A DNA stretch of 64,000 bases, taken from assembly GCA_047600605.1 (NCBI GenBank), contig JASGKK010000002.1, positions 1,075,509 to 1,139,508 of the forward strand, in the 5' to 3' direction. Positions 3,811 to 50,377 of this stretch are shown here, piece after piece. Position 1 is the stretch's first letter, and each line of letters starts with the position of its first letter. A program made the position numbers and the translations under genes. The DNA is from Chitinophagaceae bacterium (lineage in GTDB: Bacteria > Bacteroidota > Bacteroidia > Chitinophagales > Chitinophagaceae). The notes beneath the pieces are model-generated. The model was not told where the DNA came from, did not search any database, and saw only the letters and a list, made by a program, of their open reading frames with translations.

Positions 3811-3936
3811 TGATTTGAAGATTTGGTGATTTGAGAATTTGAAGATGGAGGAAGTGGCTGGTGGCCGGTGGACAGTGGCCGGTAGCCCTCTTTAAACCCT
3901 TTATACTCCTTATACCCTTTAAACTTTTAAACCTTT
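3811..3936. repeat. composite intergenic micro-tandem array R1 (octamers, heptamers, then nonamers)
   Basis: 3811-3853: GATTTGAA GATTTGGT GATTTGAG AATTTGAA GATGGAGG. 3853-3885: TGGCTGG TGGCCGG TGGACAG TGGCCGG. 3888-3936: CTTTAAACC CTTTATACT CCTTATACC CTTTAAACT TTTAAACCTTT, the reverse complement of GT[A/T]TAAAGG units. Confidence 0.85.
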
Positions 3937-5234: not shown

Positions 5235-5768
5235 ATGTTTCCGGAATTGCAGACAACCAATTACTGGCTAAAGGAAATTCAAAGGGCTGATCAGCCCTTT
5301 GTTTATGAAGGACTCAGCCATCCGGAAGTGATCCGTTATTATGGAGTGTGGTACGATTCACTGGAAGCCACTGCGGGACAAATGGATTTCTATGAGCGTG
5401 TATGGAAAGAGCAGACGGGATGTTTCTGGAAGATCGTATCAAAAGAAACCGGTGAAGCCCTGGGTGTATGTGGTATGAATGGATATCTGGCACAACATGA
5501 ACGGGCCGAATTGGGTTACTGGTTATTGCCGGCTTACTGGGGCAGGGGAGTAATGAGAGAAGTATTACCCGTGGTGATACAACATCTTTTTTCGCAATGG
5601 AAACTGCACCGGCTCGAAGCAGTAGTGGAAGAAGGCAATGAAGCCAGCAGCCGCCTGGCAGAGAAGCTGGGTTTTGTGTTTGAAGGTGTTTTGCGCGATG
5701 CAGAAATCAAAAAAGGAAAAAGGGTCTCGTTGCGGATGTACAGTATGATGAAGAGTATAAAGGTATAA
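5235..5768 (+). CDS. GNAT family N-acetyltransferase (RimJ/RimL-like)
   Basis: 177-aa ORF with an acetyl-CoA-binding-like segment, WGRGVMREVLPVVIQHLF...LHRLEAVVEEGNEASSRLAEKLGF. Confidence 0.8.
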   Translation: MFPELQTTNYWLKEIQRADQPFVYEGLSHPEVIRYYGVWYDSLEATAGQMDFYERVWKEQTGCFWKIVSKETGEALGVCGMNGYLAQHERAELGYWLLPAYWGRGVMREVLPVVIQHLFSQWKLHRLEAVVEEGNEASSRLAEKLGFVFEGVLRDAEIKKGKRVSLRMYSMMKSIKV

Positions 5769-5835
5769 AAGTTTAAAGGGTATAAGGAGTATAAAGGGTT
5801 TAAAGGGGACTGCTGACCACCAACCACTGGCCACC
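5753..5835. repeat. micro-tandem array R2 (nonamers then CCANNNN heptamers)
   Basis: AGTATAAAG GTATAAAAG TTTAAAGG GTATAAGGA GTATAAAGG GTTTAAAGG, followed by GGACTGCTGA CCACCAA CCACTGG CCACC. It overlaps the last codons and the stop of the GNAT gene. Confidence 0.85.
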
Positions 5836-5858
5836 AAAAAAGAATTATATTCGTTGCC

Positions 5859-6278: not shown

Positions 6279-6419
6279 AATCAACTGTTTGGGAATAATT
6301 TTTGTGCTGGTAAAGCAGGTATTTCTGCTGTAAAGGGAATACCAACCGGTCTGTATTTGCGTTTATAGGGTAGACCGGTAGAAGAGGATGATCTATCGGA
6401 TAAGAATAAAACTTTGATC

Positions 6420-7127
6420 ATGCGTATTTTACTGATTGTTGCTGCTTTATTTTCCGGTTATGTGACTGCTGCCCAATGGAAGGATTTTATCATCAGCGTG
6501 CGTGGCGATACGCTGAACCGGGTTGACCTGAGTGGCAAACGCCAGGGACCCTGGGTGATGCATGTAGATGCACTGCGCGGCGAGCAGGGGTATGATGAAC
6601 AGGGTTATTATGAAGATGATCTGAAAGTGGGCAAGTGGGTACGTTTTTCGCTGATGGGCGATAAGATTGCAGAAGAGAACTATCGCTGGGGTTACCTCGA
6701 TGGACGTTCAAAATACTATAATCATACTGGCAGCCTGATTCGTGAAGAAAGCTGGCGCGCTTTTGAACCCGGTAAGGCCTTTGATACCGTAGATGTGGTA
6801 GACCCTACTGACCCCTCGCGTATAAAAAACCGGGTAGTAGTAAAAGTAGATGGTAAGACCATGCGCCATGGCGAATGGAAATATTATGATTCCGACTGGG
6901 GTACTGTCTACAAAACCGAGCAATGGTTTATGGATTCCCTTAAAACAGGCAAGGACCCCGATGCCCTGGCGGCTGAAGTAGATGATGACCTGAAGCCAAT
7001 TGATGTCGGCGGCAACAATAAAGACAAAAAAGAAACAAAGAAACCACAGGCCATCCTGGATTACGAAAAGAAAAACTCCGGTAAGAAAAAAGTGAATGTG
7101 CGGGATGGACGGACGGGAGGGAATTAA
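6420..7127 (+). CDS. secreted MORN/YwqK-like repeat protein with a Lys-rich tail
   Basis: Signal peptide MRILLIVAALFSGYVTAAQ. Repeated G.W..Y/dG...Y patterns (GPWVMH, KVGKWVRF, YLDGRSKYY, RHGEWKYY). The ATG at 6420 is preferred over the TTG at 6414. Confidence 0.7.
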   Translation: MRILLIVAALFSGYVTAAQWKDFIISVRGDTLNRVDLSGKRQGPWVMHVDALRGEQGYDEQGYYEDDLKVGKWVRFSLMGDKIAEENYRWGYLDGRSKYYNHTGSLIREESWRAFEPGKAFDTVDVVDPTDPSRIKNRVVVKVDGKTMRHGEWKYYDSDWGTVYKTEQWFMDSLKTGKDPDALAAEVDDDLKPIDVGGNNKDKKETKKPQAILDYEKKNSGKKKVNVRDGRTGGN

Positions 7128-7130
7128 AAA

Positions 7131-7190
7131 GTATAAAAGTTTAAAGGGTATAAAGGGTATAAAGGGTATAAAGGGTATAAAGGGTATAAT
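7131..7190. repeat. micro-tandem array R3 (nonamer GTATAAAGG)
   Basis: GTATAAAA GTTTAAAGG, then four perfect GTATAAAGG units (7148-7183), then GTATAAT. It lies between two convergent gene ends (7127 and 7212). Confidence 0.9.
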
Positions 7191-7211
7191 AAACTTATTA
7201 CTTAAAACTCA

Positions 7212-8030
7212 CTACTTATTACTTTCCCTAAAGTAGTTGCTGAAAAACAACAATTGATACTGCACCGCATTGCCCCAGTAATTCCAGTCATGCTTACCGG
7301 GACGTTCGATATAGTCGTGCGGAATTTTTAGTTTCAGCATTTTTTCGTGCAGGCGGTGGTTGATGTCATAAAAGAAATCTTCGGTACCGCAGTCGATGAT
7401 CATACGCGGGGTCCCCTTTTCCATTTTTTCGATTACATGTAATACTGAGTAGTTGTCCCAGTTGGAGGCATAGCGTACCGTGTCGCCAATACGTTTGGAA
7501 ATATCGAAACGTGAACGGGAACTGTTGAGGTCCACACCGCCGCTCATGCTGCCGCAGGCGCCAAAGAAGTCGGCATGGCGAATACCCAGGAATAAACCGC
7601 CATGGCCGCCCATGCTAAGACCGGTGATGGCGCGTCCTTTTTTGTCGGGAACCACAGAGTAGTGCGATTCAATATAGGCGGGTACTTCGGTGGCTATATA
7701 AGTTTCATAACGCATGGCACTGTCGACCGGGCTGTCGAAATACCAGCTGCTGTAATCCCCATCGGGGCATACGATCATTAATCCATATTTATCGGCATAG
7801 GTAGACAGGGCGGGAACTTTCTGGATCCAGTTGCTGTAGTTGCCGCTGTAACCATGCAGCAGGTATACCACCGGCCAGCCAGTGGCGGGTGGTACCGTAG
7901 CTGGTTGTATGACTACACAGCGGATATCCTTTTTCATAGCCTGGCTGCGTATCACGACGGTGTCGACCCAGCCGGCAGATGAACAGTTGACAATCAGTAA
8001 AAGGCAAAGGGAAATGATCATTTTTTGCAT
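7212..8030 (-). CDS. esterase family protein (alpha/beta hydrolase, putative esterase/CE1-like)
   Basis: 272-aa ORF with an N-terminal signal-like segment, the nucleophile elbow GLSMGGHG and VVYLLHGYSGN. Confidence 0.85.
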   Translation of the reverse strand: MQKMIISLCLLLIVNCSSAGWVDTVVIRSQAMKKDIRCVVIQPATVPPATGWPVVYLLHGYSGNYSNWIQKVPALSTYADKYGLMIVCPDGDYSSWYFDSPVDSAMRYETYIATEVPAYIESHYSVVPDKKGRAITGLSMGGHGGLFLGIRHADFFGACGSMSGGVDLNSSRSRFDISKRIGDTVRYASNWDNYSVLHVIEKMEKGTPRMIIDCGTEDFFYDINHRLHEKMLKLKIPHDYIERPGKHDWNYWGNAVQYQLLFFSNYFRESNK

Positions 8031-8110
8031 GCCTTAAAGATAGGTAAATGCGGAGGTGGGTTGCATGAGGTGGCTGTTGTTTTTATCAGGGTTGTCAGTT
8101 TGCGGTCTAT

Positions 8111-8134
8111 AGGCCCGCGATGCATCGCGGGCCT
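8111..8134. repeat. perfect 24-bp palindrome in a divergent promoter region
   Basis: AGGCCCGCGATG|CATCGCGGGCCT is its own reverse complement. It lies between the esterase start (8030, minus) and the SPFH start (8241, plus). Confidence 0.8.
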
Positions 8135-8240
8135 GCAGCATTTTTGTGATCTGGTGCCTTCACAGCTTTTTCCGTTTAATTTGGAAATTTCCTTTTCATG
8201 ATCTATATTTGATATCATTTTGATATCAAACTAAAAGCAT

Positions 8241-9350: not shown

Positions 9351-9385
9351 AAACCGCCTGCAAGAGCAGGCGGTTTTTTCTTTTT
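9351..9385 (+). terminator. intrinsic terminator
   Basis: AAACCGCCTGC-AAGA-GCAGGCGGTTT, an 11-bp perfect stem, followed by TTTCTTTTT. Confidence 0.8.
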
Positions 9386-21934: not shown

Positions 21935-22738
21935 ATGAAAATTGATATTTTTAGATTGACTTCGATTGATCATGCCGGTGTCGGTAATGAAGAAAACGGA
22001 TTAGTCGACCTGCTTTATTCCTTTTTACTTTGGAAGAATGGACTGGATTATTATAAATACATATTGATTAATCAAATTGGAAAGGATCAACAGATTAAAG
22101 AAGTAGTTCAAATTAAGAATGGCCGGGTTCATGTTAATTTAATTTACACCACCGAAAAGAATTTTGATCAGTTAGATGATTATAGGAAAAATACGATCAA
22201 GGTAGATATTATCCATGAAGGGCTTCAGAGATTATCCAAAGTTGATCCAAGGTTTTCTGATGAATTGCTGAATAAAATTAGAGGTCAAATAATTTCAAAG
22301 AATTTTTCTGTTGAATTGGAAAGTATTGGAAAGAATAGTCCTTTTGACAAAGAAGTTAGTGGCAAAATGGTGATTTTGCCCACCCCGAAATACTTTGACT
22401 ATTACCTTTTGATAAAGAATGGCAGCAAAGAAATATGTAGGCAGTTTATTTATAGAGGCGCCCCAACATCCGATTATTTCTACGCTTTTTTTTCAAGAGC
22501 TAAGTGGAAGAATAACATCACTTTTATTGTTGAAGGACGTGAAAAACAAATGCGATTGAAACTTGATGTTTCTAATTGTAAAGTTACTTTTGAGAATTTA
22601 ACTCATTACCCCAACCCACCCTTATGGGAAATAATGAAAGTAGGCATAAGTGAACAGGAAAGCAAAAGCGCCTACGAAAACTGGCTGCACTCCCTTCCTC
22701 CTGCGGTTGCCGCGATGATAAGGGATCACGAGAATTAG
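21935..22738 (+). CDS. uncharacterised 267-aa protein, tandem paralog 1 (candidate orphan immunity/accessory protein)
   Basis: MKIDIFRLTSIDHAGVGNEENGLVDLLYSFLLWKNGLDYYKY... with C-terminus ...PPLWEIMKVGISEQESKSAYENWLHSLPPAVAAMIRDHEN. Confidence 0.8.
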   Translation: MKIDIFRLTSIDHAGVGNEENGLVDLLYSFLLWKNGLDYYKYILINQIGKDQQIKEVVQIKNGRVHVNLIYTTEKNFDQLDDYRKNTIKVDIIHEGLQRLSKVDPRFSDELLNKIRGQIISKNFSVELESIGKNSPFDKEVSGKMVILPTPKYFDYYLLIKNGSKEICRQFIYRGAPTSDYFYAFFSRAKWKNNITFIVEGREKQMRLKLDVSNCKVTFENLTHYPNPPLWEIMKVGISEQESKSAYENWLHSLPPAVAAMIRDHEN

Positions 22739-22751
22739 TTTCAATATAGAT

Positions 22752-23555
22752 ATGAAGATTGAAATTTTTAGACTAATTTCTATAGACCCTAATGGTATAG
22801 GAAATCGAGGAAATGGGTTATTAAATATAATTTATTCCTACCTACTGTGGAAGAACGGGTTGGATTATTATAGGTTCATCAAGGTAAACCAAATTGGGCG
22901 GGAGCAACAGGTTAAGGAATTTGTAGAAATTGACAAAGGATACGTCCATATAAATTTAATATATCCCACAGATAAGGATTTCAATTTGCTTGATGATGAT
23001 AACAAAAACAAAATTCGTCTAGAAGTTGCTCATGCAGGTTTACTGCGATTGGCAGAGGTTGATTCTCGGTTTTCTATATCTAAACTGAATAAAATTCATG
23101 AAGAAGTAATAAAAAATAATTTCCAAATTGCATTGGAAAGTGATGGTAAGATAAATCAATTTGATAAGGGCGTTCTGGTAAAGCTGTTAATCTTACCAAG
23201 TATAACCTACTTCGACTATCACTTGATAATTCAAAGGGATGGTGCCGAAATTTGCCGACAATTTTTATACCGGGGAAAGCCCGCACCTGACATTGTTACC
23301 TATTTTTTTTCTAAGCCAAAGTGGAAAAATAAAAACGAATTGGTAATTGAAGGAGAAGAAAAGCAAATGCGTCTCCGATTAAATATATCCAATTGTAATT
23401 TGGAGTTTCAGAATTTGACTCAGTATCCAAGCCCACCCTTGTGGGAAATGATGAAAGTAGGCATAAGCGAACAGGAAAGTAAAAGTGCCTACGAAAACTG
23501 GCTGCACTCCCTTCCTCCTGCGGTTGCCGCGATGATAAGGGATCACGAGAATTAG
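22752..23555 (+). CDS. uncharacterised 267-aa protein, tandem paralog 2
   Basis: MKIEIFRLISIDPNGIGNRGNGLLNIIYSYLLWKNGLDYYRF... with the same C-terminal ~40 aa as paralog 1. Confidence 0.8.
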   Translation: MKIEIFRLISIDPNGIGNRGNGLLNIIYSYLLWKNGLDYYRFIKVNQIGREQQVKEFVEIDKGYVHINLIYPTDKDFNLLDDDNKNKIRLEVAHAGLLRLAEVDSRFSISKLNKIHEEVIKNNFQIALESDGKINQFDKGVLVKLLILPSITYFDYHLIIQRDGAEICRQFLYRGKPAPDIVTYFFSKPKWKNKNELVIEGEEKQMRLRLNISNCNLEFQNLTQYPSPPLWEMMKVGISEQESKSAYENWLHSLPPAVAAMIRDHEN

Positions 23556-23568
23556 TTTCAATATAGAT

Positions 23569-24372
23569 ATGAAGATCGAAATTTTCAGATTAATTTCAAT
23601 TGATCCCGATGGTATCGGCAATCAAGGAAACGGCTTGTTAGATATTCTTTATTCTTATTTATTATGGAAGAATGGTTTAGACTTTTATAAATTCATTAGG
23701 ATTAATCAAATTGGGCATGAGCAACAGATAAAAGAATTCGTAGAAATTGAAAAAGGGAAGGTACATGTTAGTCTAATCCATCCTACGAACAAAGAATTCG
23801 ATTTACTTGATGACTACAACAAGAATAAGATTCGATTGGAGGTAATACATGCCGGACTACTTAGGTTGGCAGAGGTTGATCCCAGGTTTTCACCAAATGT
23901 GCTTGAGAAAATTCGTGAGAATATCCTCAATAGTAATTTCAATGTCGCGCTGGAAGGGGAATGGAAAGTAAACCAATTCGACAGAACTGTTCAGTTTAGC
24001 TTTTCAGTTATACCGTACACAGCATTTTTTGATTATTATATAACAGTTCAGAGGGACGGAATTGAAATTTGTAAGCAGTTTTTATATCGAGGGAAGCCTA
24101 ACCCTAGTATTGCGTATTACTTTTTTTCTAGGCCAAAATGGAAAAATAAAAGCGAGTTGGTGATTGAAGGGGAAGAAAAGCAAATGCGTCTCCGTTTAGA
24201 TATATCCAATTGTACTTTAGAGTTTCAAAATTTAACCCAGTATCCAAATCCACCGTTGTGGGAAATGATGAAAGTGGGCATAAGCGAACAGGAAAACAAA
24301 AGTGCCTACGAAAACTGGCTTCACTCTCTTCCACCGGCAGTCGCCGCGGTAATAAGAGATCACGAAAATTAG
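23569..24372 (+). CDS. uncharacterised 267-aa protein, tandem paralog 3
   Basis: MKIEIFRLISIDPDGIGNQGNGLLDILYSYLLWKNGLDFYKF... with C-terminus ...SAYENWLHSLPPAVAAVIRDHEN. Confidence 0.8.
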   Translation: MKIEIFRLISIDPDGIGNQGNGLLDILYSYLLWKNGLDFYKFIRINQIGHEQQIKEFVEIEKGKVHVSLIHPTNKEFDLLDDYNKNKIRLEVIHAGLLRLAEVDPRFSPNVLEKIRENILNSNFNVALEGEWKVNQFDRTVQFSFSVIPYTAFFDYYITVQRDGIEICKQFLYRGKPNPSIAYYFFSRPKWKNKSELVIEGEEKQMRLRLDISNCTLEFQNLTQYPNPPLWEMMKVGISEQENKSAYENWLHSLPPAVAAVIRDHEN

Positions 24373-29667: not shown

Positions 29668-30063
29668 ATGTATATAGGATCCCTTGTAGAAACTCTTATT
29701 TCTAAGATTGTACTCGAACAGGGTGATTTAGAGGACAGTGAATTAATTTTATTTCTCATAAATAATGATAATTCAAAGGAGGCAAGTATTTATGTAACAC
29801 TATTTACTCCTATTGTTTTAGGAAGAATCATTTGCGAACCCTTAAATGTGGAATTTGTTAATGTTTACCATGAACAGTTAGAAGATGGAACGGAAAGAAA
29901 AGGCTTTTTGACAGAAAATTCTTTCTATACAGAAATCTACAAGATTGTAAAAACACTGATAAAAAATGGTTTCATTGATGAAGACAGTGTTTTTAAAATT
30001 GCTTTACGGAGCCCTGAGTTTAGACTTTTAAATGATTTCATATTGAAAGGTAATAATGTGTAA
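29668..30063 (+). CDS. hypothetical protein (possible orphan immunity gene, perhaps 5'-degraded)
   Basis: 131-aa AT-rich ORF downstream of degraded cassette 3. No motif recognised. Confidence 0.5.
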   Translation: MYIGSLVETLISKIVLEQGDLEDSELILFLINNDNSKEASIYVTLFTPIVLGRIICEPLNVEFVNVYHEQLEDGTERKGFLTENSFYTEIYKIVKTLIKNGFIDEDSVFKIALRSPEFRLLNDFILKGNNV

Positions 30064-30071
30064 TAGTCAGT

Positions 30072-31252
30072 ACTTGATCTGACAGTTGAGGATTAATTTT
30101 TTAATTTTCAAAAGGGATGCCGATTAAATTAGTTAGGCTGCTGAACTTACCTGGTTCAGCAGTTTTTGTTTAGCTAAGGTAATAGATTCAGTAAAGGTAA
30201 GCATGGGGGTTTTGCCAAAGCAGTATCTGCCACTGTGTGGTCTTTCGTTGTTGTAGAACTCCAGCCACTGATCCAGGTCGTGTTGGAGCGTTTCCAGATT
30301 CTGGTATAATTTTTTACGGAATGTGATGGCATAGAACTCCTCCTGCATCGTTCGATGCAGGCGTTCGCAGATACCGTTGCTTTGGGGATGACGAACTTTT
30401 GTCTTGCTATGATCGACTCCTTCGATCTGTAGGTACAGAGCGTACTCATGGCTTTCAGGTCTTCCATTAAACTCGGTACCGCGGTCGGTGAGTATCCGCA
30501 GCAGGGGTATTTGTTGCTGTTCAAAGAAGGGAAGAACCTTGTCATTGAGTATATCTGCCGCTGTAATAGCATGCCTGCTGGTATACAGTTTTGCAAAAGC
30601 TACACGGCTGTAAGTATCAATGAAAGTCTGCTGATAAATACGGCCAACCCCCTTGATTGTTCCAACGTAGTAGGTATCCTGTGAACCCAGGTAACCTGGA
30701 TGCTCCGTTTCTATTTCGCCATGGGCCTCCAGTTTCTCCCTTTTACGCTCCAGGGCTATCAACTGAGCTTCTGTAAGGATCAGCCCAGCCTGAGCAACAC
30801 GGACTTCCAGGGCCTTTAACCGCTTTTCGAAGACTTCCAGGTCATGGCGCTGCCACACACAACGGACCCCTGCAGCGGAGATAAAAATGCCCTGTTTGCG
30901 TAATTCATTGCTGATCCGGAACTGACCATAGGCCGGATAGTCAAAGGCCATCTTCACAACAGCTTCTTCCACAGCCGGATTGACCCGGTTCTTCGGTACA
31001 GGTTTGCGGCGGCTGATCTCCCGCAGCGCCTCTTCTCCACCGGTATCATATAACTGTTTGATGCGGTAAAAACTGTCCCGGCTGGTGCCCATTAACTTAC
31101 AGGCACGGGTGACGTTGTTCAATTGTTCAGCCAGGTTGAGCAGGCCAATGCGGGATTTGATTAACTTAGTTTCAGAGTTCATGATCTGACTTTTGGGGGT
31201 TATTAATTTAGTTTGTCGTTACTCTAAATTAACCCCAACTGTCAGATCAAGT
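30072..31252 (-). mobile_element. IS481-family insertion sequence
   Basis: 17-bp perfect terminal inverted repeat ACTTGATCTGACAGTTG (30072-30088 versus the reverse complement of 31236-31252), extending imperfectly to ~26 bp. A single transposase ORF lies inside. I saw no clear target-site duplication. Confidence 0.85.
30133..31182 (-). CDS. IS481-family transposase (HTH + DDE/rve integrase core)
   Basis: 349 aa. ...[23 protein letters not shown]... HTH, then DTYYVG...FIDTYSRV...[10 protein letters not shown]...[19 protein letters not shown]. Confidence 0.9.
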
Positions 31253-31506
31253 CTTAACTTCTACAAATAATGCCAGTGATATTAAGTTTTCACCATTACA
31301 TTTAAACAGGTAGACTCGTTCCTTTTCGTCATTGCAGGTATTTAAGGTAATAATTAGTAGTAGCCCTGACAGTTGATGGTTTTTATTTTACTGCTCAAAA
31401 TGGTTAGGGTTAAACAGCCGGGCTACTATTGAAAAGCTTCCCCTGGTTAAATCTAATAATTGTTTACTGCTTTCAATCGCTACGATTTAAGGGGAAACTT
31501 TTTAGA

Positions 31507-33728: not shown

Positions 33729-33745
33729 GGCAAAGGGAAAAGGGA

Positions 33746-33956
33746 AAGGTGAAAGGCAAAAGGTATAAAGGTTTAAGGAGTATAAAGGGTATAAAAAGTT
33801 TAAAGGGTGCTGGTTGTCCGGTCTGTGAGGATAAATATGAGATAAAGGAGGCTTGTAGTAGTAAACAGGCCCTAACCATGGGACTTGACGGGACAGAACC
33901 CGGAGGTTTTTTGCATAAACAGATAGAAATATCCTATTCCTTCTGCCTTTCACCTT
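33746..33956. repeat. micro-tandem array R4 bounded by 18-bp imperfect inverted repeats (MITE-like)
   Basis: AAGGTGAAAGGCAAAAGG (33746-33763) matches the reverse complement of 33939-33956 (AAGGTGAAAGGCAGAAGG) at 17 of 18 positions. Inside is the nonamer array GTATAAAGG TTTAAGGA GTATAAAGG GTATAAAAA GTTTAAAGG. Confidence 0.75.
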
Positions 33957-33993
33957 CTATCTTATTATTTAAATTCGTTATCAAATCAACCAG

Positions 33994-34580: not shown

Positions 34581-34607
34581 AAAGCATTTTTTGAGGTATA
34601 TAAAAAA

Positions 34608-34634
34608 GAAGGTCCGCAATATTTGCGGACCTTC
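34608..34634. terminator. bidirectional intrinsic terminator between convergent genes
   Basis: GAAGGTCCGCAA-TAT-TTGCGGACCTTC, preceded by AAAAAA and followed by TGCCTTTTT. Confidence 0.75.
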
Positions 34635-34664
34635 TGCCTTTTTCCTTACACCTCCAACCTTTTA

Positions 34665-42333: not shown

Positions 42334-42459
42334 GAGTGGTGGACAGAATAAAAGTTTAAAGGTTTAAAAGTATAAAGGGTATAAAGAGTTTAAAGAGTTT
42401 AAAGGGTATTATATCTGTCCACTGACTACTGACTACTGACTACTGACCACTGTCCACTC
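42334..42459. repeat. micro-tandem array R5 (nonamers + six heptamers) bracketed by an inverted repeat
   Basis: GAGTGGTGGACAG (42334-42346) pairs with CTGTCCACTC (42450-42459). Nonamers span 42347-42412. Heptamers read CTGTCCA CTGACTA CTGACTA CTGACTA CTGACCA CTGTCCA (42415-42456). The array fills the gap between convergent stops at 42333 and 42458. Confidence 0.85.
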
Positions 42460-43567
42460 AATTCACCTCCTCCTTCCGCTGTAGTTTCTCAATCATTCCT
42501 TCTACCGCTGTTTTATTGACGGCATCGGGAGCAAGGGGCAGGGCCTGCCGGGCATATTTGAGTGCCTGTTTGAGATCGCCATTGGCGGAGAGGCCACGGC
42601 ACATCCCCACCAGGGTTGTAAACTGACCGGGGTGGGCTTTCAGGTTTTGTCTGAATACTTCCAGCGCGGTGGCATTTTGTTTTTGCTGTAATAACTGCCG
42701 GCCATAATTGTGCACTTCCTGCATGCTGGCGAGTGGCAATCCCTTTTGCATGAGTTGAGCAGCTTCTTCCGGTTTGTCCATTTTTCGCAATAAAGCAGCT
42801 TTGACTATATAGGTGGCAAAAATGCGATCACCGCCAAAGGTGGGACTGTTGGCACTATCGGCCCAGGCGAGTGCCTGTTGCAGATTTACATTACGCTGCA
42901 GGCACCAGTTGGCTGCCATATTCCAGCTTTCCCAGGTAAATCCTTTTTCCTGACGCAGTTCTTTACGGAAGCTTTCCAACTGATCATTTACATAATCTGT
43001 TTCAATGGTAAAGGGGATGCTTAATTTTTCCCATTTGAGTGCCACCTGTGCCTTGTTTTCGGCAAGCGCATTGAATTCGTATTTAAGCCACTCCACAGAT
43101 TCGGTGAGAGCAACGGGTTTTACCGTTACTCGCAGGATATCTTCTGCCGGATCGTAATAATAGCTGCCCCAGGAGTCGGCATTACGGGAAAAGATCAGGA
43201 TGCACTGATCGGCACCATAGGCGATAAAGAACCCATATCTGCCGGCAGGCAGTGGCTGGCCTTCAATCTTCACCGGACGGGAAAATTCAATAGTAGTGTT
43301 TTCATTGGCACCGGCGCGCCAGGGAGCGGCTTTACTACTGCCAAAGCCCTGGTCGGCAAATCCTGCATATACCAGCTGACCCCATATCTTTCCTTCCCGC
43401 CCTTTTACACCGGGCCGGTCATAGTGAATGCTCACATCCGTAAGACCAATCCGTTCGGAAACGGAGGCTTTTTTGTTGCCGCCACTGGGGGCTGTTGTAA
43501 GCGGAATCTGCGCATGCACGGCAAAGGGGAGTGCCATGCAGCAAAGTACATAGAACAGGTAACGCAT
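42458..43567 (-). CDS. DUF2911 domain protein with C-terminal TPR repeats
   Basis: Signal peptide MRYLFYVLCCMALPFAVHAQ. ...VSIHYDRPGVKGREGKIWGQLVYAG...WRAGANENTTIEFS... is DUF2911-like, followed by a TPR-like tail. Confidence 0.75.
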   Translation of the reverse strand: MRYLFYVLCCMALPFAVHAQIPLTTAPSGGNKKASVSERIGLTDVSIHYDRPGVKGREGKIWGQLVYAGFADQGFGSSKAAPWRAGANENTTIEFSRPVKIEGQPLPAGRYGFFIAYGADQCILIFSRNADSWGSYYYDPAEDILRVTVKPVALTESVEWLKYEFNALAENKAQVALKWEKLSIPFTIETDYVNDQLESFRKELRQEKGFTWESWNMAANWCLQRNVNLQQALAWADSANSPTFGGDRIFATYIVKAALLRKMDKPEEAAQLMQKGLPLASMQEVHNYGRQLLQQKQNATALEVFRQNLKAHPGQFTTLVGMCRGLSANGDLKQALKYARQALPLAPDAVNKTAVEGMIEKLQRKEEVN

Positions 43568-43608: not shown

Positions 43609-43847
43609 GAGTGGTCAGTGGATAGTGGTCAGTGGCTGGGAATTGGTTCGAATGGCTGAAAGTATCAGGAGAAAATGTATAAAAGTGTAAAGGTTTAAAA
43701 GTATAAAGGGTATAAAGCGTTTAAAGGGAAGAGGTAGCTGGTAAAAGGCTAAGGGGGTGTTCATTAGCGCGCATGAGTAAACCAGCGCAGTGGCATATTT
43801 TCCTTCTTCATCTTCAAATTTTCAAATTATCAAACCACTGCTGTCCG
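43609..43847. repeat. composite micro-tandem array R6 (same modules as R1, opposite orientation)
   Basis: Heptamers TGGTCAG TGGATAG TGGTCAG TGGCTGG (43609-43640). Nonamers at 43677-43728. Octamers, read on the other strand, are GGTTTGAT AATTTGAA AATTTGAA GATGAAGA (43801-43836). Confidence 0.8.
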
Positions 43848-44366
43848 GGAAAATAAAAGAAAATAGCTATTCTTTCGGGAAGTTATCACACTGTCTTTAC
43901 AGTTGAAACGAAGCATACGATCCGGATGCGCAGCGATCCGAAGTCGCGGATTGACCGATCGGTTAAACTGGAAATGATCGAATCGTTTATTATCCGCATA
44001 ATACTGTTCTCCCGTTTCGTACCTGCTTTTAATTCCGTCTTTTTGCCTCCACGGCCGGCAGGCCGATGTGGTTCACCGGTGCTGTGTTTTTCTCCGGTCT
44101 CTGCTTACTGTATAAATTTTAAAGATTCAATCGGAGAAAAACAAGGCACCTTGTGAACCACAAGAAAAAATAAGAGAAAATGGTAGGCAAATGGGATAAA
44201 GAGCCTCTGACACTCTGTGGCCATATCCAACAATGTTATAAAGGGGGCGTTACTTTTAAAAAACTTTCAAAACCGCCTGTAGGTAGCTGATTAGAAGATG
44301 ACCTGTTTTTAATATGAATTTTCCCCGGACAACAGTGATCATCAAATCTTCAAATCACACTGTCCG

Positions 44367-45011
44367 CTACTTAATCAGTTTATGCTCATACGCATATTTC
44401 ACCAGGCCAATCACACTGTTGGTGCCTGATTTGCGGAAGATGTTTTTGCGGTGGGTTTCTACCGTTCGTTCGCTGATGAAAAGAGCCTCTGCGATTTGTT
44501 TGTTGTTATATTCTTTTTCGATAAGGCGAATGATTTCAATTTCGCGCTCCGTCAGGTGGGCTTCTTCGTTTTGTTTTTTGCGGGTATCTGTTTTTTGCAG
44601 GGCGGTAATCACTTCTTCGCTGAAGTAGATGCCTCCGTCGGCTATGCGGGTGAGTGCGGTGACCAACTCTGTTTGCCCGATATTTTTCAGTACATAACCC
44701 GAAATATCGGCATGGGTGATCATATCATTGACCAGGTCGCCTTCACCGTTCATTGACAGGGCAAGGATCTTTACCTGCGGGAATTTTTCTTTGACTTTGC
44801 GGGCCAGTTCATTGCCGGCCATCTCCGGCATCATCACATCTGTAAGGAGGATATCGACGGGGGTGTCGGCCAGTTTCTGCAGTACCTCGCGGGGGTGAGT
44901 AGTGGCAAAGGCAAAATGGAATTGCTCATTGCCAGCCAGCAGGGCCTGCAAGCCATCGATCACTATCTGGTGATCGTCTACAAATGCCAGCGTTATTTTC
45001 CCGTTTTTCAT
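44367..45011 (-). CDS. LuxR/NarL-family response regulator
   Basis: REC domain (ITLAFVDDHQIV...DILLTDVMMPEM) plus an HTH (LTEREIEIIRLIEKEYNNKQIAEALFISERTVETHRKNIFRK). The ATG at 45011 is preferred over the TTG at 45023. Confidence 0.9.
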   Translation of the reverse strand: MKNGKITLAFVDDHQIVIDGLQALLAGNEQFHFAFATTHPREVLQKLADTPVDILLTDVMMPEMAGNELARKVKEKFPQVKILALSMNGEGDLVNDMITHADISGYVLKNIGQTELVTALTRIADGGIYFSEEVITALQKTDTRKKQNEEAHLTEREIEIIRLIEKEYNNKQIAEALFISERTVETHRKNIFRKSGTNSVIGLVKYAYEHKLIK

Positions 45012-45079
45012 GTGGTGTCTCAAAATACTATAAATTCCGGAAGAGCACTATAGCCTGTGGCAAAAATTGATCATTACCG

Positions 45080-48604: not shown

Positions 48605-49522
48605 TCAGCCAACCTGCACACCCATTATCTGCAGCAATTTGGTCAGTTCTTCGTTTGAATAGTAATCAATGAGTATCTGACCATTGCCACCCTTGCTGTG
48701 TTTTAATTTCACGCGGGTGCTTAAATGCGACGCTAAGTTATCTTCTATTTTCTGGTAGGTAGGAGCCAGGCTGCTTTTTGCCGTTTTTTTAACAGCTGCA
48801 CCCTGTTTGTACAGATTGCGTACAAGAGCTTCTGTCTGACGTACAGAAAGATCTTTGCTGGTGATCTCTTTGAAAATAAAGAGTTGCTTATTGATGGTAT
48901 CTACATTGATGAGTGCACGTGCATGTCCCATGCTGAGTGAGCCATTGCGTACTGCCAGTTGAATATCGGGTGGCAGTTTGAGCAGGCGGATGAAATTGGC
49001 AACAGTGCTGCGGTCTTTACCCATGCGTTCTGCTACCTGCTCCTGGGTATAATCCAGTTCTTCCATCATACGCTTGTAACTCAGTGCCACCTCCATGGCA
49101 TTGAGGTTTTCGCGCTGCAGATTTTCCAGCAGGGCCAGCTCCAGCAGCTCCATATCATTGGCCTGACGGATATAGGCCGGAATATCTTTCAGTCCCGCCA
49201 GTTTGGACGCACGCAGGCGGCGCTCACCTGAGATGAGGCGGTATTTGCCGGAAGGAAGTTTGGAAACTGTGATGGGTTGAATGATATCATGCAGTTTGAT
49301 AGATTCAGCCAGTTCTTTCAGTGCCTGTTCATCAAAATCGCGACGCGGTTGTTTGGGGTTGGTGTCGATATCGCCAACAGGTATACGATTGATGCCGGTA
49401 GCATTTTCTACCACAGCAGGTTTGAGGTTGCCGGTACCTGTTTTCAGATCGCTGTCGATACTTTGCAGCAGGGAGCGGATACCTTTTCCTAATGCGTCTT
49501 TATTTTGTTTGGGGTTGGTCAT
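48605..49522 (-). CDS. parB: ParB/Spo0J chromosome partitioning protein
   Basis: ...IQPITVSKLPSGKYRLISGERRLRASKLAG... ParB box. Confidence 0.92.
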   Translation of the reverse strand: MTNPKQNKDALGKGIRSLLQSIDSDLKTGTGNLKPAVVENATGINRIPVGDIDTNPKQPRRDFDEQALKELAESIKLHDIIQPITVSKLPSGKYRLISGERRLRASKLAGLKDIPAYIRQANDMELLELALLENLQRENLNAMEVALSYKRMMEELDYTQEQVAERMGKDRSTVANFIRLLKLPPDIQLAVRNGSLSMGHARALINVDTINKQLFIFKEITSKDLSVRQTEALVRNLYKQGAAVKKTAKSSLAPTYQKIEDNLASHLSTRVKLKHSKGGNGQILIDYYSNEELTKLLQIMGVQVG

Positions 49523-49573
49523 GGTAAGCTATTTGCGAGGGCCGAAGGCCCGCATCATCGGGAGTTTTTTCCC

Positions 49574-50377
49574 TTATAATTCAAGGATCCTTTCTTCCTG
49601 TTTGATCTTCGTCATATTGTTTTTCTGCAGGATCTCTTTGGCCAGATTGAGATAGTTCATAGAGCCCTTGCTGGCTGCATCGTAGAGTATAACGGGTTTA
49701 CCCACACTGGGTGCTTCGGAGAGACGTGCATTACGATGTACGATAGTACTGAAGACCAGGTCTTCGAAATGGCGTCTTACTTCGCTCACCACCTGATTGC
49801 ACAGGCGCAGACGGCCATCGTACATGGTCATCAGAATGCCTTCGATGACCAGGGCGGGGTTGAGGCGACTTTGAACGATCTTAATGGTATTCAGCAATTT
49901 GCCCAGACCTTCGAGGGCAAAAAACTCACATTGCACAGGCACTACCACTGAGTCGGATGCCGTAAGGGCATTTACTGTGATAAGACCCAGGGAAGGAGAG
50001 CAGTCGATGATAATAAAGTCATAATCGTCCCGGACCGGCTCCAGCATGTTTTTGAGGACCATTTCCCGGTTGGGATAATTGATCATCTCGATTTCTGCAC
50101 CTACCAGGTCAATATGGGAGGGAAGGAGGTCGAGATAGGGGATCTCTGATTTCAGGATCACGTCTTTGGCCTTGGCCTCATTGACCATACAATCGTAAAG
50201 ACTTTGCGTAACGTTGTGAAGATCAAAGCCTACGCCTGTGGTACTATTTGCTTGCGGGTCGCCATCCACCAGCAGGGTCCTGTATTCCAGTACGGCAAAA
50301 CTTGCCGCCAGATTGATGGCAGTGGTTGTTTTGCCTACGCCACCTTTTTGGTTTGCCACGCCTATGATTCTAGCCAT
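49574..50377 (-). CDS. parA: ParA/Soj partitioning ATPase
   Basis: [24 protein letters not shown], the deviant Walker A motif. Confidence 0.93.

Follow-up and report, generated by a model that had tools for sequence, protein, structure and literature searches.

The stretch analysed here, referred to as the window, is a 64-kb segment of contig JASGKK010000002.1 from a Chitinophagaceae bacterium (assembly GCA_047600605.1, positions 1,075,509 to 1,139,508), and its subject is a group of short tandem arrays lying in the spacers between genes. The flanking genes are ordinary chromosomal genes, which code for a homocitrate-synthase-like protein, carA, a GNAT acetyltransferase, aroQ, an esterase, a Band 7 protein and a sulfatase, and further for a DUF2911-TPR protein, a two-component system, dapB, parAB and lon. 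The six intergenic sites delineated by an initial annotation made from the letters of the window were all recovered with Tandem Repeats Finder (TRF), which reported arrays with periods of 7, 8 and 9 nt in 3–7 copies at every site, and the counts of their words were far above those of shuffled sequences. Modules were named N for the nonamer GTWTAAAGG and n for the same word on the minus strand, H for the G-rich heptamer and h for its complement (ACTGNNN), O for the octamer and o for its complement, P for the purine-rich module and p for its pyrimidine-rich partner, and x for the heptamer ACTTATT. With this notation, the plus strand reads O H n at site 1, N h at site 2, N x at site 3, P N .. p at site 4, H N h at site 5 and H N .. 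o h at site 6 (Table 1). The arrays are non-coding compound tandem repeats made from a small word set (N, H/h, O/o, P). We consider it probable, though well short of certain, that the window sites are lineage-specific, extragenic and largely neutral repeats maintained by slippage and conversion, and not dedicated terminators.

The arrays are real and far beyond chance expectation. GTWTAAAGG was found 22 times in the 64 kb against 1.28 expected, a number reached in 0 of 100 shuffles, and 19 of these 22 copies fell inside the six sites. The ACTGNNN trimer occurred 6 times (0.23 expected) and the octamer dimer 7 times (1.86 expected). The spacers of the window held 16 TRF rows of period 6–11, distributed over 7 spacers, whereas dinucleotide shuffles averaged 0.23 rows and never gave more than 1. 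Rather than being scattered at random, genes included, arrays of these periods were concentrated in spacers, with 20.5 per 10 kb of intergenic DNA versus 0.35 per 10 kb of coding DNA (~60-fold). Since independent assemblies carry the same arrays (L001, L002 and L202–L207), these are not assembly artefacts; short-read contigs terminate within them. Coding or peptide repeats were rejected, in agreement with the initial annotation, because periods of 7 and 8 run out of frame and the TAA of the nonamer stops one frame.

The vocabulary proved less uniform than proposed. All six sites had been described as built from the same three words, which holds for the nonamer, present at every site, but the heptamers TGGNNNG/ACTGNNN were restricted to sites 1, 2, 5 and 6, and the octamer to sites 1 and 6, plus a previously unlisted mini-site at 44338–44367. 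Site 3 carries a different heptamer (ACTTATT) and site 4 a purine-rich block of the AAAGGGA type. Heptamers of the window include TGGTCAG, TGGACAG, GTGGCCG and ACTGACT and, in RNA notation, the array words read GUAUAAAGG, CCUUUAUAC, ACUGUCC and ACUGNCC. Sites 1 and 6 were also said to carry the three modules in the same order on opposite strands. This was not the case, as site 1 reads O H n whereas the reverse complement of site 6 reads H O .. n h, with the order of O and H swapped and an extra h. The closest pair among the sites is formed by sites 1 and 2, which share a 78-nt inverted repeat (left arm 3859–3936, right arm 5759–5836) with 68 of 78 positions identical (87%). Its arms, separated by 1,822 nt, flank the carA and GNAT genes, and might permit this segment to invert or the ends of transcripts to pair. 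At site 4, the p module is the inverted partner of 33746–33767 (22 nt, 91% complementary), with a P-to-p distance of 167 nt.

Table 1. Array modules of the window, with coordinates counted from its first nucleotide.
Site	Module	Coordinates	Strand	Remarks
1	Octamer O (GATTTGAA) x4.4	3812..3846	+	Missing from this spacer in three congeners
1	G-rich heptamer H (GTGGCCG/GTGGACA) x4.9	3854..3887	+	Small GC hairpin inside, z -2.1
1	Nonamer, read as n = CCTTTATAC/CCTTTAAAC on plus	3888..3936	- (N strand)	
2	Nonamer N x6	5755..5808	+	TAA of unit 1 is the stop codon of GNAT gene 5235-5768
2	C-rich heptamer h (ACTGCTG ACCACCA ACCACTG GCCACC)	5809..5835	+	Ends 23 nt upstream of the aroQ ATG; in right arm of inverted repeat
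3	Nonamer N x6.7	7131..7189	+	Begins 3 nt past the stop of ORF 6414-7127; P..p hairpin in congeners
3	Heptamer x (ACTTATT/ACTCACT)	7193..7225	+	Overlaps last codons of esterase gene 7212-8030(-)
4	Purine-rich P (AAAGGGA/AAAGGTG...)	33729..33762	+	Begins at the stop of the alpha/beta-hydrolase gene
4	Nonamer N x5	33763..33807	+	N x6 and x8 in congeners, then conserved terminator-like CCGGA(G)TTTTTTG
4	Pyrimidine-rich p	33935..33963	+	31 nt before the start of the next gene
5	Short H (GAGTGGTGGACAG)	42334..42346	+	Directly 3' of the sulfatase stop codon
5	Nonamer N x7	42350..42409	+	Inverted relative to the H..h arms in L207
5	Heptamer h (ACTGACT/ACTGACC/ACTGTCC) x6.3	42415..42459	+	Overlaps the stop codon of gene 42458-43567(-)
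6	Heptamer H (GTGGTCA/GTGGATA) x4	43609..43639	+	Upstream of gene 42458-43567(-), 41 nt from its start
6	Nonamer N x6	43677..43728	+	
6	Octamer o (TTCAAATT/ATCAAACC), then short h (ACTGCTGTCC)	43806..43846	+	
Mini-site 7	o x2.5 and h (ATCATCAAATCTTCAAATCACACTGTCCGC)	44338..44367	+	Ends at the stop of LuxR-type response-regulator gene 44367-45023(-)

The comparison of related genomes, suggested earlier as a means to detect copy-number variation, revealed arrays of different lengths separated by unit-multiple indels. For aroQ, a tight group of relatives was found at 94–97% amino-acid identity, consisting of metagenome-assembled genomes (MAGs) named "Chitinophagaceae bacterium" or "Sphingobacteriales bacterium", while the next relatives, Terrimonas and Lacibacter among them, reached at most 87%. 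The syntenic loci of three congeners (L202, L203 and L205) have 84–90% DNA identity to the window. At sites 1, 2 and 4, these congeners keep the module order, and copy numbers and words differ. Thus, site 1 is H-n in the window and in the three congeners, with the heptamer GTGGCCG versus GTTGACA and O in the window only; site 2 is N-h in all four, with 4–6 heptamers; and N is repeated five, six or eight times at site 4. The same behavior was observed between the MAGs Sphingobacteriales bacterium 46-32 (MKTY01) and Chitinophagaceae Gw_Bodden_bin_256 (JAGODE01), which are 89–93% identical over three orthologous stretches and agree both in the spacers that hold arrays and in module order. Their arrays differ by indels of 42 (6x7), 63 (9x7) and 119 (17x7) nt, and their array-free spacers are highly conserved. 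Closer pairs gave the clearest picture: between L203 and L205, which are 99.4% identical, 52 substitutions were counted over 9,402 aligned bases, and all their internal indels, including +14 nt (2x7) and +18 nt (2x9), lie within sites 1, 2 and 4, with 11 of the 52 substitutions falling inside the 125 nt that make up site 1. Likewise L001, 99.4% identical to the window, has one unit fewer at site 3. Arrays thus gain or lose entire units, the hallmark of replication slippage, and in genomes that are otherwise nearly the same the indels concentrate in them, at positions fixed in spacers conserved across species. The earlier suggestion of slippage-prone host repeats is borne out by these indels, found both between congeners and between 99.4%-identical genomes.

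Slippage is probably accompanied by exchanges between arrays. When 3859–3936 was compared with the reverse complement of 5759–5836, a 39-nt exact run was found which includes the rare unit GTATAAGGAG. As this unit is absent from the orthologous site-1 arrays, site 1 was most likely converted by site 2 within the window lineage. The unit variant TAAGGA was initially a candidate for a window-specific mark (3 of 33 units versus 0 of 264), which was ruled out by its presence at sites 2 and 4 of congeners. This variant is site-linked and old, and only its occurrence at site 1 of the window is new, which provides evidence for conversion between arrays. Whole modules differ as well: site 3 is N followed by x in the window versus a P..p hairpin in congeners and, at site 5 of L207, the middle nonamer block lies in the opposite orientation between unchanged H..h arms, as would be expected from recombination between inverted arms. 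Word variants and entire modules may therefore travel from array to array by intragenomic recombination or gene conversion. Altogether, the arrays evolve by slippage, probably combined with recombination between them, while their locations remain the same.

The family extends beyond the window. Nonamer dimers were scanned with one genome per species, the counts of loci per genome being lower bounds. At least ~25 loci were found in MKTY01 and at least ~13 in JAGODE01, and other taxa had single matches only among the matches listed. The window and MKTY01 share 96.8% amino-acid identity over their overlap; among the nonamer-dimer loci of MKTY01 only L010 and L039 overlap the window, away from its array sites, and no orthology at array sites was seen in this set. 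In MKTY01 and JAGODE01, N arrays are intergenic and differ in unit order and number from locus to locus, and N is followed, as in the window, by ACTG-type heptamers, ACTTATT/ACTTAGA, CAGCACAT/TAGCACAT or TTCAAAC-type octamers. No N word was found in 80 metagenomic loci around more distant aroQ homologues (66–83% identity), many of which carry arrays of period 7–9 built from other words. This is illustrated by (AATTCGTGT)x4, located just before the aroQ start in six lineages (1–2 nt before the ATG in L115, L134, L144, L154 and L157, and ~14 nt before in L172), and by the inverted heptamer pairs GATTGCG/CGCAATC, GTGAATG/CATTCAC and AGTAAAA/TTTTACT. The isolate Terrimonas sp. NA20 (GCA_022012415.1; L209 1425–1540 and 4927–5020) has CGCAAAG-type arrays together with hairpins whose tandem 9-mer arms are GC-rich (GAACGCGGC...) and reach -90.6 kcal/mol (z -13). 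The arrays are thus a general phenomenon of the family, with a vocabulary specific to each lineage, the nonamer word family being typical of one genus-level Chitinophagaceae clade which contains the window organism, MKTY01, JAGODE01 and the L202–L207 genomes. Neither the nonamer dimer nor such arrays in Chitinophagaceae were found described in the literature searched. A phage origin was rejected, as the 17 nonamer-dimer matches in viral contigs are isolated or coding dimers and not arrays.

Within the nonamer clade, the arrays follow a strict polarity. There were 21 N-loop-n pairs and 0 n-loop-N pairs, with loops of unique sequence and arms that begin 0–16 nt past stop codons. The 5' end of the purine-rich N strand was directed toward the nearest gene in 51 cases versus 10; in 26 of the arrays sense N followed a stop codon (median distance 3 nt), and in 25 antisense N adjoined a gene start. 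Array spacers turned from G>C to C>G in 39 cases versus 7, and every window site conforms to this order, which is not a general rule since other Chitinophagaceae lineages gave 11:14. The C-poor, purine-rich strand, on which N, H, O and P are read, points away from the adjoining gene. Hence, a complete element is a quasi-palindrome of C-poor modules followed by G-poor modules, and genes are bracketed by complementary modules. In the window, this applies to carA-GNAT (sites 1 and 2, n/H...N/h) and to gene 42458–43567 (h...H), the H of site 6 being complementary to the h module at the opposite end of this gene. The claim that all sites lie at 3' ends of genes or between convergent genes was not retained: site 6 adjoins the start, and not the end, of gene 42458–43567(-), and in the wider set N arrays abut nearly as many gene starts as stop codons (25 vs 26). 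Arrays were present in 18 of 59 convergent, 55 of 287 tandem and 8 of 75 divergent spacers (convergent versus divergent, Fisher p 0.007).

Folding separated two structural extremes, same-word arms giving very stable hairpins and different-word arms giving random-like or less structured sequences. The N-loop-n pairs of relatives form stems of 20–45 bp (z -3 to -9.5), and hairpins with matching arms range overall from z -3 to -13. The six window sites, all with arms of different words, gave z values of -1.07 to +2.58, none of them better than shuffles, and the hairpin hypothesis was ruled out for these sites. Site 2 (+2.58) and its orthologue (+2.69) are even significantly less structured than shuffles, site 3 gave +1.4 and +1.8, and the congener orthologues of sites 1 and 2 gave +0.5 and +2.7. 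A terminator-associated role had been proposed for the six sites. In addition to the absence of favorable folding, with sites 2 and 3 worse than shuffles, no terminator with a GC stem and T-run is listed inside the modules, though such terminators are listed elsewhere in the window. Because the hairpin form is absent there, and because the hairpin of site 3 has been replaced by a non-hairpin, no terminator role was assigned to the window sites. Canonical GC-rich hairpins followed by T-runs are located at 8110–8135, 9351–9376 and 34607–34635, the last two being bidirectional; their position at array-free gene ends shows that the organism uses ordinary intrinsic terminators there. The N array of site 4 is probably within a 3' untranslated region, since it is placed between the stop codon and the conserved CCGGA(G)TTTTTTG. 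A scan for sigma-70 promoters gave counts equal to those of shuffles, this type of scan being ill-suited to Bacteroidota promoters.

Tandem repeats of 5–11 nt have been recognized in the spacers of some bacteria, in cyanobacteria since 1990 and later in Xanthomonas and Beggiatoaceae, and we know of no accepted origin or function for them. The initial annotation could not assign the arrays to a described class. However, they fit long simple sequence repeats (LSSRs) with units of 5–11 nt, the definition of LSSRs, as relayed in PMC4679880, covering units of 1–11 nt (Mrazek, 2007). Indeed, head-to-tail copies with periods of 7, 8 and 9 are found at every site, in the large excess over shuffles given above (16 TRF rows vs 0.23, 22 words vs 1.28), and whole-unit slippage is documented by indels of 14, 18, 42, 63 and 119 nt between relatives. 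The arrays are LSSRs by definition, and they behave like three described groups of repeats. The intergenic, G-rich simple sequence repeats (SSRs) GGGAATC of Xanthomonas and GGGGAYT of Nostoc have the geometry seen here, form convergent inverted pairs, are depleted between divergent genes and, in Xanthomonas, occupy the same spacers in two species with length variation and no function found (Rehm et al., 2015, PMC4692102). Our arrays share with them tandem units of ~7 nt, a strong intergenic bias, convergent inverted pairs, rarity in divergent spacers, and conserved spacers in sister species despite large variation in length and sequence. Unlike these SSRs, they combine 7-, 8- and 9-nt units in ordered compound arrays, their words are AT-rich and mostly devoid of G-quadruplex (G4) potential, the arms of one pair may differ in word, and the host belongs to Bacteroidota. 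The second group consists of the short tandemly repeated repetitive (STRR) sequences of cyanobacteria, for which Mazel et al. reportedly described in 1990 the heptamers CCCCAGT, TTGGTCA and CAACAGT. The literature confirms that Calothrix has three such heptamers. Tandem heptamers in spacers and several word types per genome are common to both systems, and H/h share with the STRR words a CAGT/ACTG core and three variable bases. The window words resemble the named heptamers in this core only; words and taxon differ, and nonamer/octamer modules as well as N-loop-n hairpins fall outside the STRR description.

The third group, the TAACTGA direct repeats, occurs in Beggiatoaceae, Cyanobacteria and five Bacteroidetes (MacGregor, 2015, PMC4679880). 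In Gramella, Aequorivita and Elizabethkingia, TAACTGA shares spacers with other heptamer repeats; contigs break at the repeats, and close relatives are without them or variable (PMC4679880). Both systems consist of intergenic heptamer arrays with an ACTG core, but the Beggiatoaceae repeats lie mostly just upstream of starts in one orientation, whereas starts and stops are equally represented here. No TAACTGA tandem was found in the 64-kb window, which contains 6 single copies. Repetitive extragenic palindromic (REP) sequences, bacterial interspersed mosaic elements (BIMEs) and REP doublets forming hairpins (REPINs) are outlined as high-copy, extragenic, species-specific inverted doublets, enriched at gene ends and forming hairpins, with proposed roles in termination, mRNA stability and supercoiling. 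A REP unit is an imperfect palindrome of 20–40 nt with a GTAG or CGTC head, spread by REP-associated tyrosine transposases (RAYTs). By contrast, the units described here are 7–9 nt long, non-palindromic, tandem and variable in number, none is self-complementary, and hairpins arise only from two opposed arrays. The exclusion of clustered regularly interspaced short palindromic repeats (CRISPR) by the initial annotation was upheld, as directly abutting units of 7–9 nt do not correspond to repeats of 23–55 nt separated by unique spacers of similar length. Its exclusion of classical miniature inverted-repeat transposable elements (MITEs) holds equally: in place of fixed-length, near-identical copies with terminal inverted repeats and target-site duplications, unit order and length vary at every locus and loops are unique.

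In the interpretation that we favor, arrays would self-perpetuate at gene boundaries by slippage and inter-array conversion, and the window copies would be spacer DNA tolerated there. Several observations weigh against it. Pure neutrality fails to account for the strict polarity (21:0 and 51:10) or for arrays hugging stop codons (median 3 nt), so that some selective or mechanistic constraint is acting. The persistence of arrays in the same spacers over ~15% DNA divergence, despite turnover, could reflect selection for their presence. Besides, slippage alone cannot carry one word to hundreds of spacers, and the proposed inter-array conversion is drawn from few cases. The source genome was represented by the 64-kb window and the relatives by samples of 8–10 kb, and the MKTY01 and JAGODE01 loci were sampled for containing the nonamer dimer. 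While identity and mode of evolution could be read from the comparisons, function is approached indirectly, and functional alternatives were kept mainly because neutral slippage leaves the strict polarity unexplained. The first of them is that arrays act as boundary elements on transcripts, either as bidirectional terminators or as stem-loops protecting RNA 3' ends in the manner of REP/BIMEs, their arms having been lengthened by slippage of the A-/U-rich flanks of ancestral terminators and the window copies being decayed or alternative forms. The strict N-loop-n order, with an A/G-rich 5' arm and a U/C-rich 3' arm, is indeed the polarity of a bidirectional intrinsic terminator, and it comes with arms starting immediately past stop codons, extremely stable stems, a preference for convergent over divergent spacers, the listing of GC-stem and T-run terminators elsewhere in the window with none inside array modules, and, at L177, a canonical A-tract/stem/U-tract core between (AGUAAAA)n and (UUUUACU)n arrays. 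However, 0 of 6 window sites fold better than shuffles, orthologues of sites 1 and 2 are unstructured too, the convergent spacer of site 3 is a hairpin in congeners and not in the window, hairpins are found beside gene starts in divergent spacers as well, the N array of site 4 lies upstream of a separate terminator-like hairpin with T-run, and the stems are AU-rich without a clean U-tract. We regard this explanation as unlikely, albeit deserving attention. For same-word elements, which would place a very stable stem-loop directly past the stop codon, polarity, post-stop placement and the L177 core point to a form that may serve as a bidirectional transcript-end or insulating element, and such a boundary function is possible on sequence grounds.

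The site 2 arrays, by being less structured than shuffles in the window and in its orthologue (z +2.6 and +2.7), rather call to mind binding platforms for a lineage-specific factor recognizing single-stranded RNA or DNA, or deliberately unstructured leaders. The words would then be recognition units co-evolving with the factor, and arrays preceding starts would tune translation in bacteria that do not rely on Shine-Dalgarno sequences. This is consistent with the own word set of each lineage, used in many spacers, with (AATTCGTGT)x4 before the aroQ ATG in six other lineages where the N-h array of the window ends 23 nt before it, and with a comparable proposal published for TAACTGA repeats. We nevertheless judge it decidedly improbable: arrays are equally frequent past stop codons and between convergent genes; even nearly identical genomes differ freely in unit sequence and copy number, an uncommon behavior for a tuned site; one entire module may stand in the place of another; and no candidate protein was identified. 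The strict polarity, which brackets every gene or operon with G-poor words before the start and matching C-poor words after the stop, could also be taken as the mark of an active lineage-wide process rather than of tolerated slippage. In one version, a dedicated factor would read the arrays, or the 5' and 3' ends of one transcript, or both DNA flanks, would pair, insulating or marking native units; in another, breaks at gene boundaries would have repeats added to their 3' DNA ends by templated synthesis, a direct explanation for the exclusive N-loop-n order. We hold this to be a highly speculative and very improbable reading. Spread as non-autonomous, MITE- or REPIN-like mobile elements by a transposase encoded elsewhere in the genome could be invoked from the multi-copy, intergenic and quasi-palindromic nature of the arrays with inverted ends (H..h, N..n), from their genome-specific word sets and from site 1 being a copy of site 2. 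This is scarcely credible given that arrays have no fixed length or master sequence, unit order differs in every array, each N-loop-n pair has a loop sequence of its own, target-site duplications were not observed, and orthologous spacers carry arrays in all compared species, the differences being indels of whole units rather than the gain or loss of an array. Moreover, a Pfam scan of ~40 window ORFs gave no transposase of the Y1/RAYT type, the only transposase being an rve-type insertion sequence (IS) gene. Finally, G4-forming repeats comparable to GGGAATC of Xanthomonas have an almost negligible probability: (GGGTATAAA)n at site 3 fits the canonical motif (at least four G3+ tracts with loops of 1–7 nt), but it is the sole array site of the window to do so, most arrays mixing GG, GA and 8-nt units and H heptamers having no G run longer than GG.

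These arrays, which mutate very fast, add a Bacteroidota family, unusually easy to dissect, to an old puzzle and do not constitute a new kind of system. Descriptively new are the multi-module grammar, the combination of 7-, 8- and 9-nt units, the coexistence of contrasting hairpin and unstructured elements, and direct evidence for the probable conversion and inversion. With several congeners sequenced, one can follow slippage, conversion, inversion and the replacement of modules directly. Experiments could be carried out in the cultured relative Terrimonas sp. NA20, whose hairpins are of this type. In practice, the arrays break short-read assemblies and make gene callers extend ORFs, and they provide natural high-resolution strain markers. 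The DUF2911 homologue of L207 (187–1470, protein P0121), for example, is called with 427 aa versus 369 aa in the window; its ORF was apparently extended upstream through repeat arrays, which can thus inflate ORF predictions.

Some neighboring features deserve mention. The mini-site at 44338–44367 is a direct repeat of 43806–43846, and these direct copies of the H-O module flank an insert of ~480 nt (43849–44337), located between the response-regulator and DUF2911 genes and absent from L207. It contains a near-perfect hairpin of 96 nt (44067–44162, -49 kcal/mol, z -7.4), and its segment 44029–44093 is 88% identical to the MKTY01 locus L089 (5994–6059). This insert may be a small structured or mobile element placed into an array. 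In the 45–64 kb part of the window, ~10 spacers of at least 50 nt are without arrays, and parB and parA (48605–50377) adjoin dapB and a DUF5683 gene. No tRNA or tmRNA gene was found in the window. Rfam 15 gave 0 matches at gathering score over the whole window, and a relaxed threshold gave only chance-level hairpin matches to miRNA models, all outside the arrays.

The initial annotation had opposed the array sites to an accessory island without arrays. No array was found between 9.4 and 32.7 kb, a result that is weakly significant given the numbers of spacers. Because the three congeners are without the segment ~9,392–32,690 (23 kb), it is a true insertion; its counterpart in congeners consists of Band_7, a 61-aa gene and a terminator, then the alpha/beta-hydrolase gene within ~0.2–0.9 kb. 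The island, in which the GC content drops to 35–42%, encodes a DUF5977 protein, a DUF6443-RHS polymorphic toxin (15159–19553), a SUKH/SMI1 immunity protein (19544–20008) and a DUF416 protein. It also contains repeated toxin-tip and immunity cassettes (direct repeats at 17.8–29.4 kb) and three tandem 267-aa paralogues (21935–24372). At its right end lies an IS element (30053–31271) with the rve-type integrase gene 30133–31182(-), bounded by inverted repeats of 46 nt (30053–30098 and 31226–31271) which are 76% complementary.

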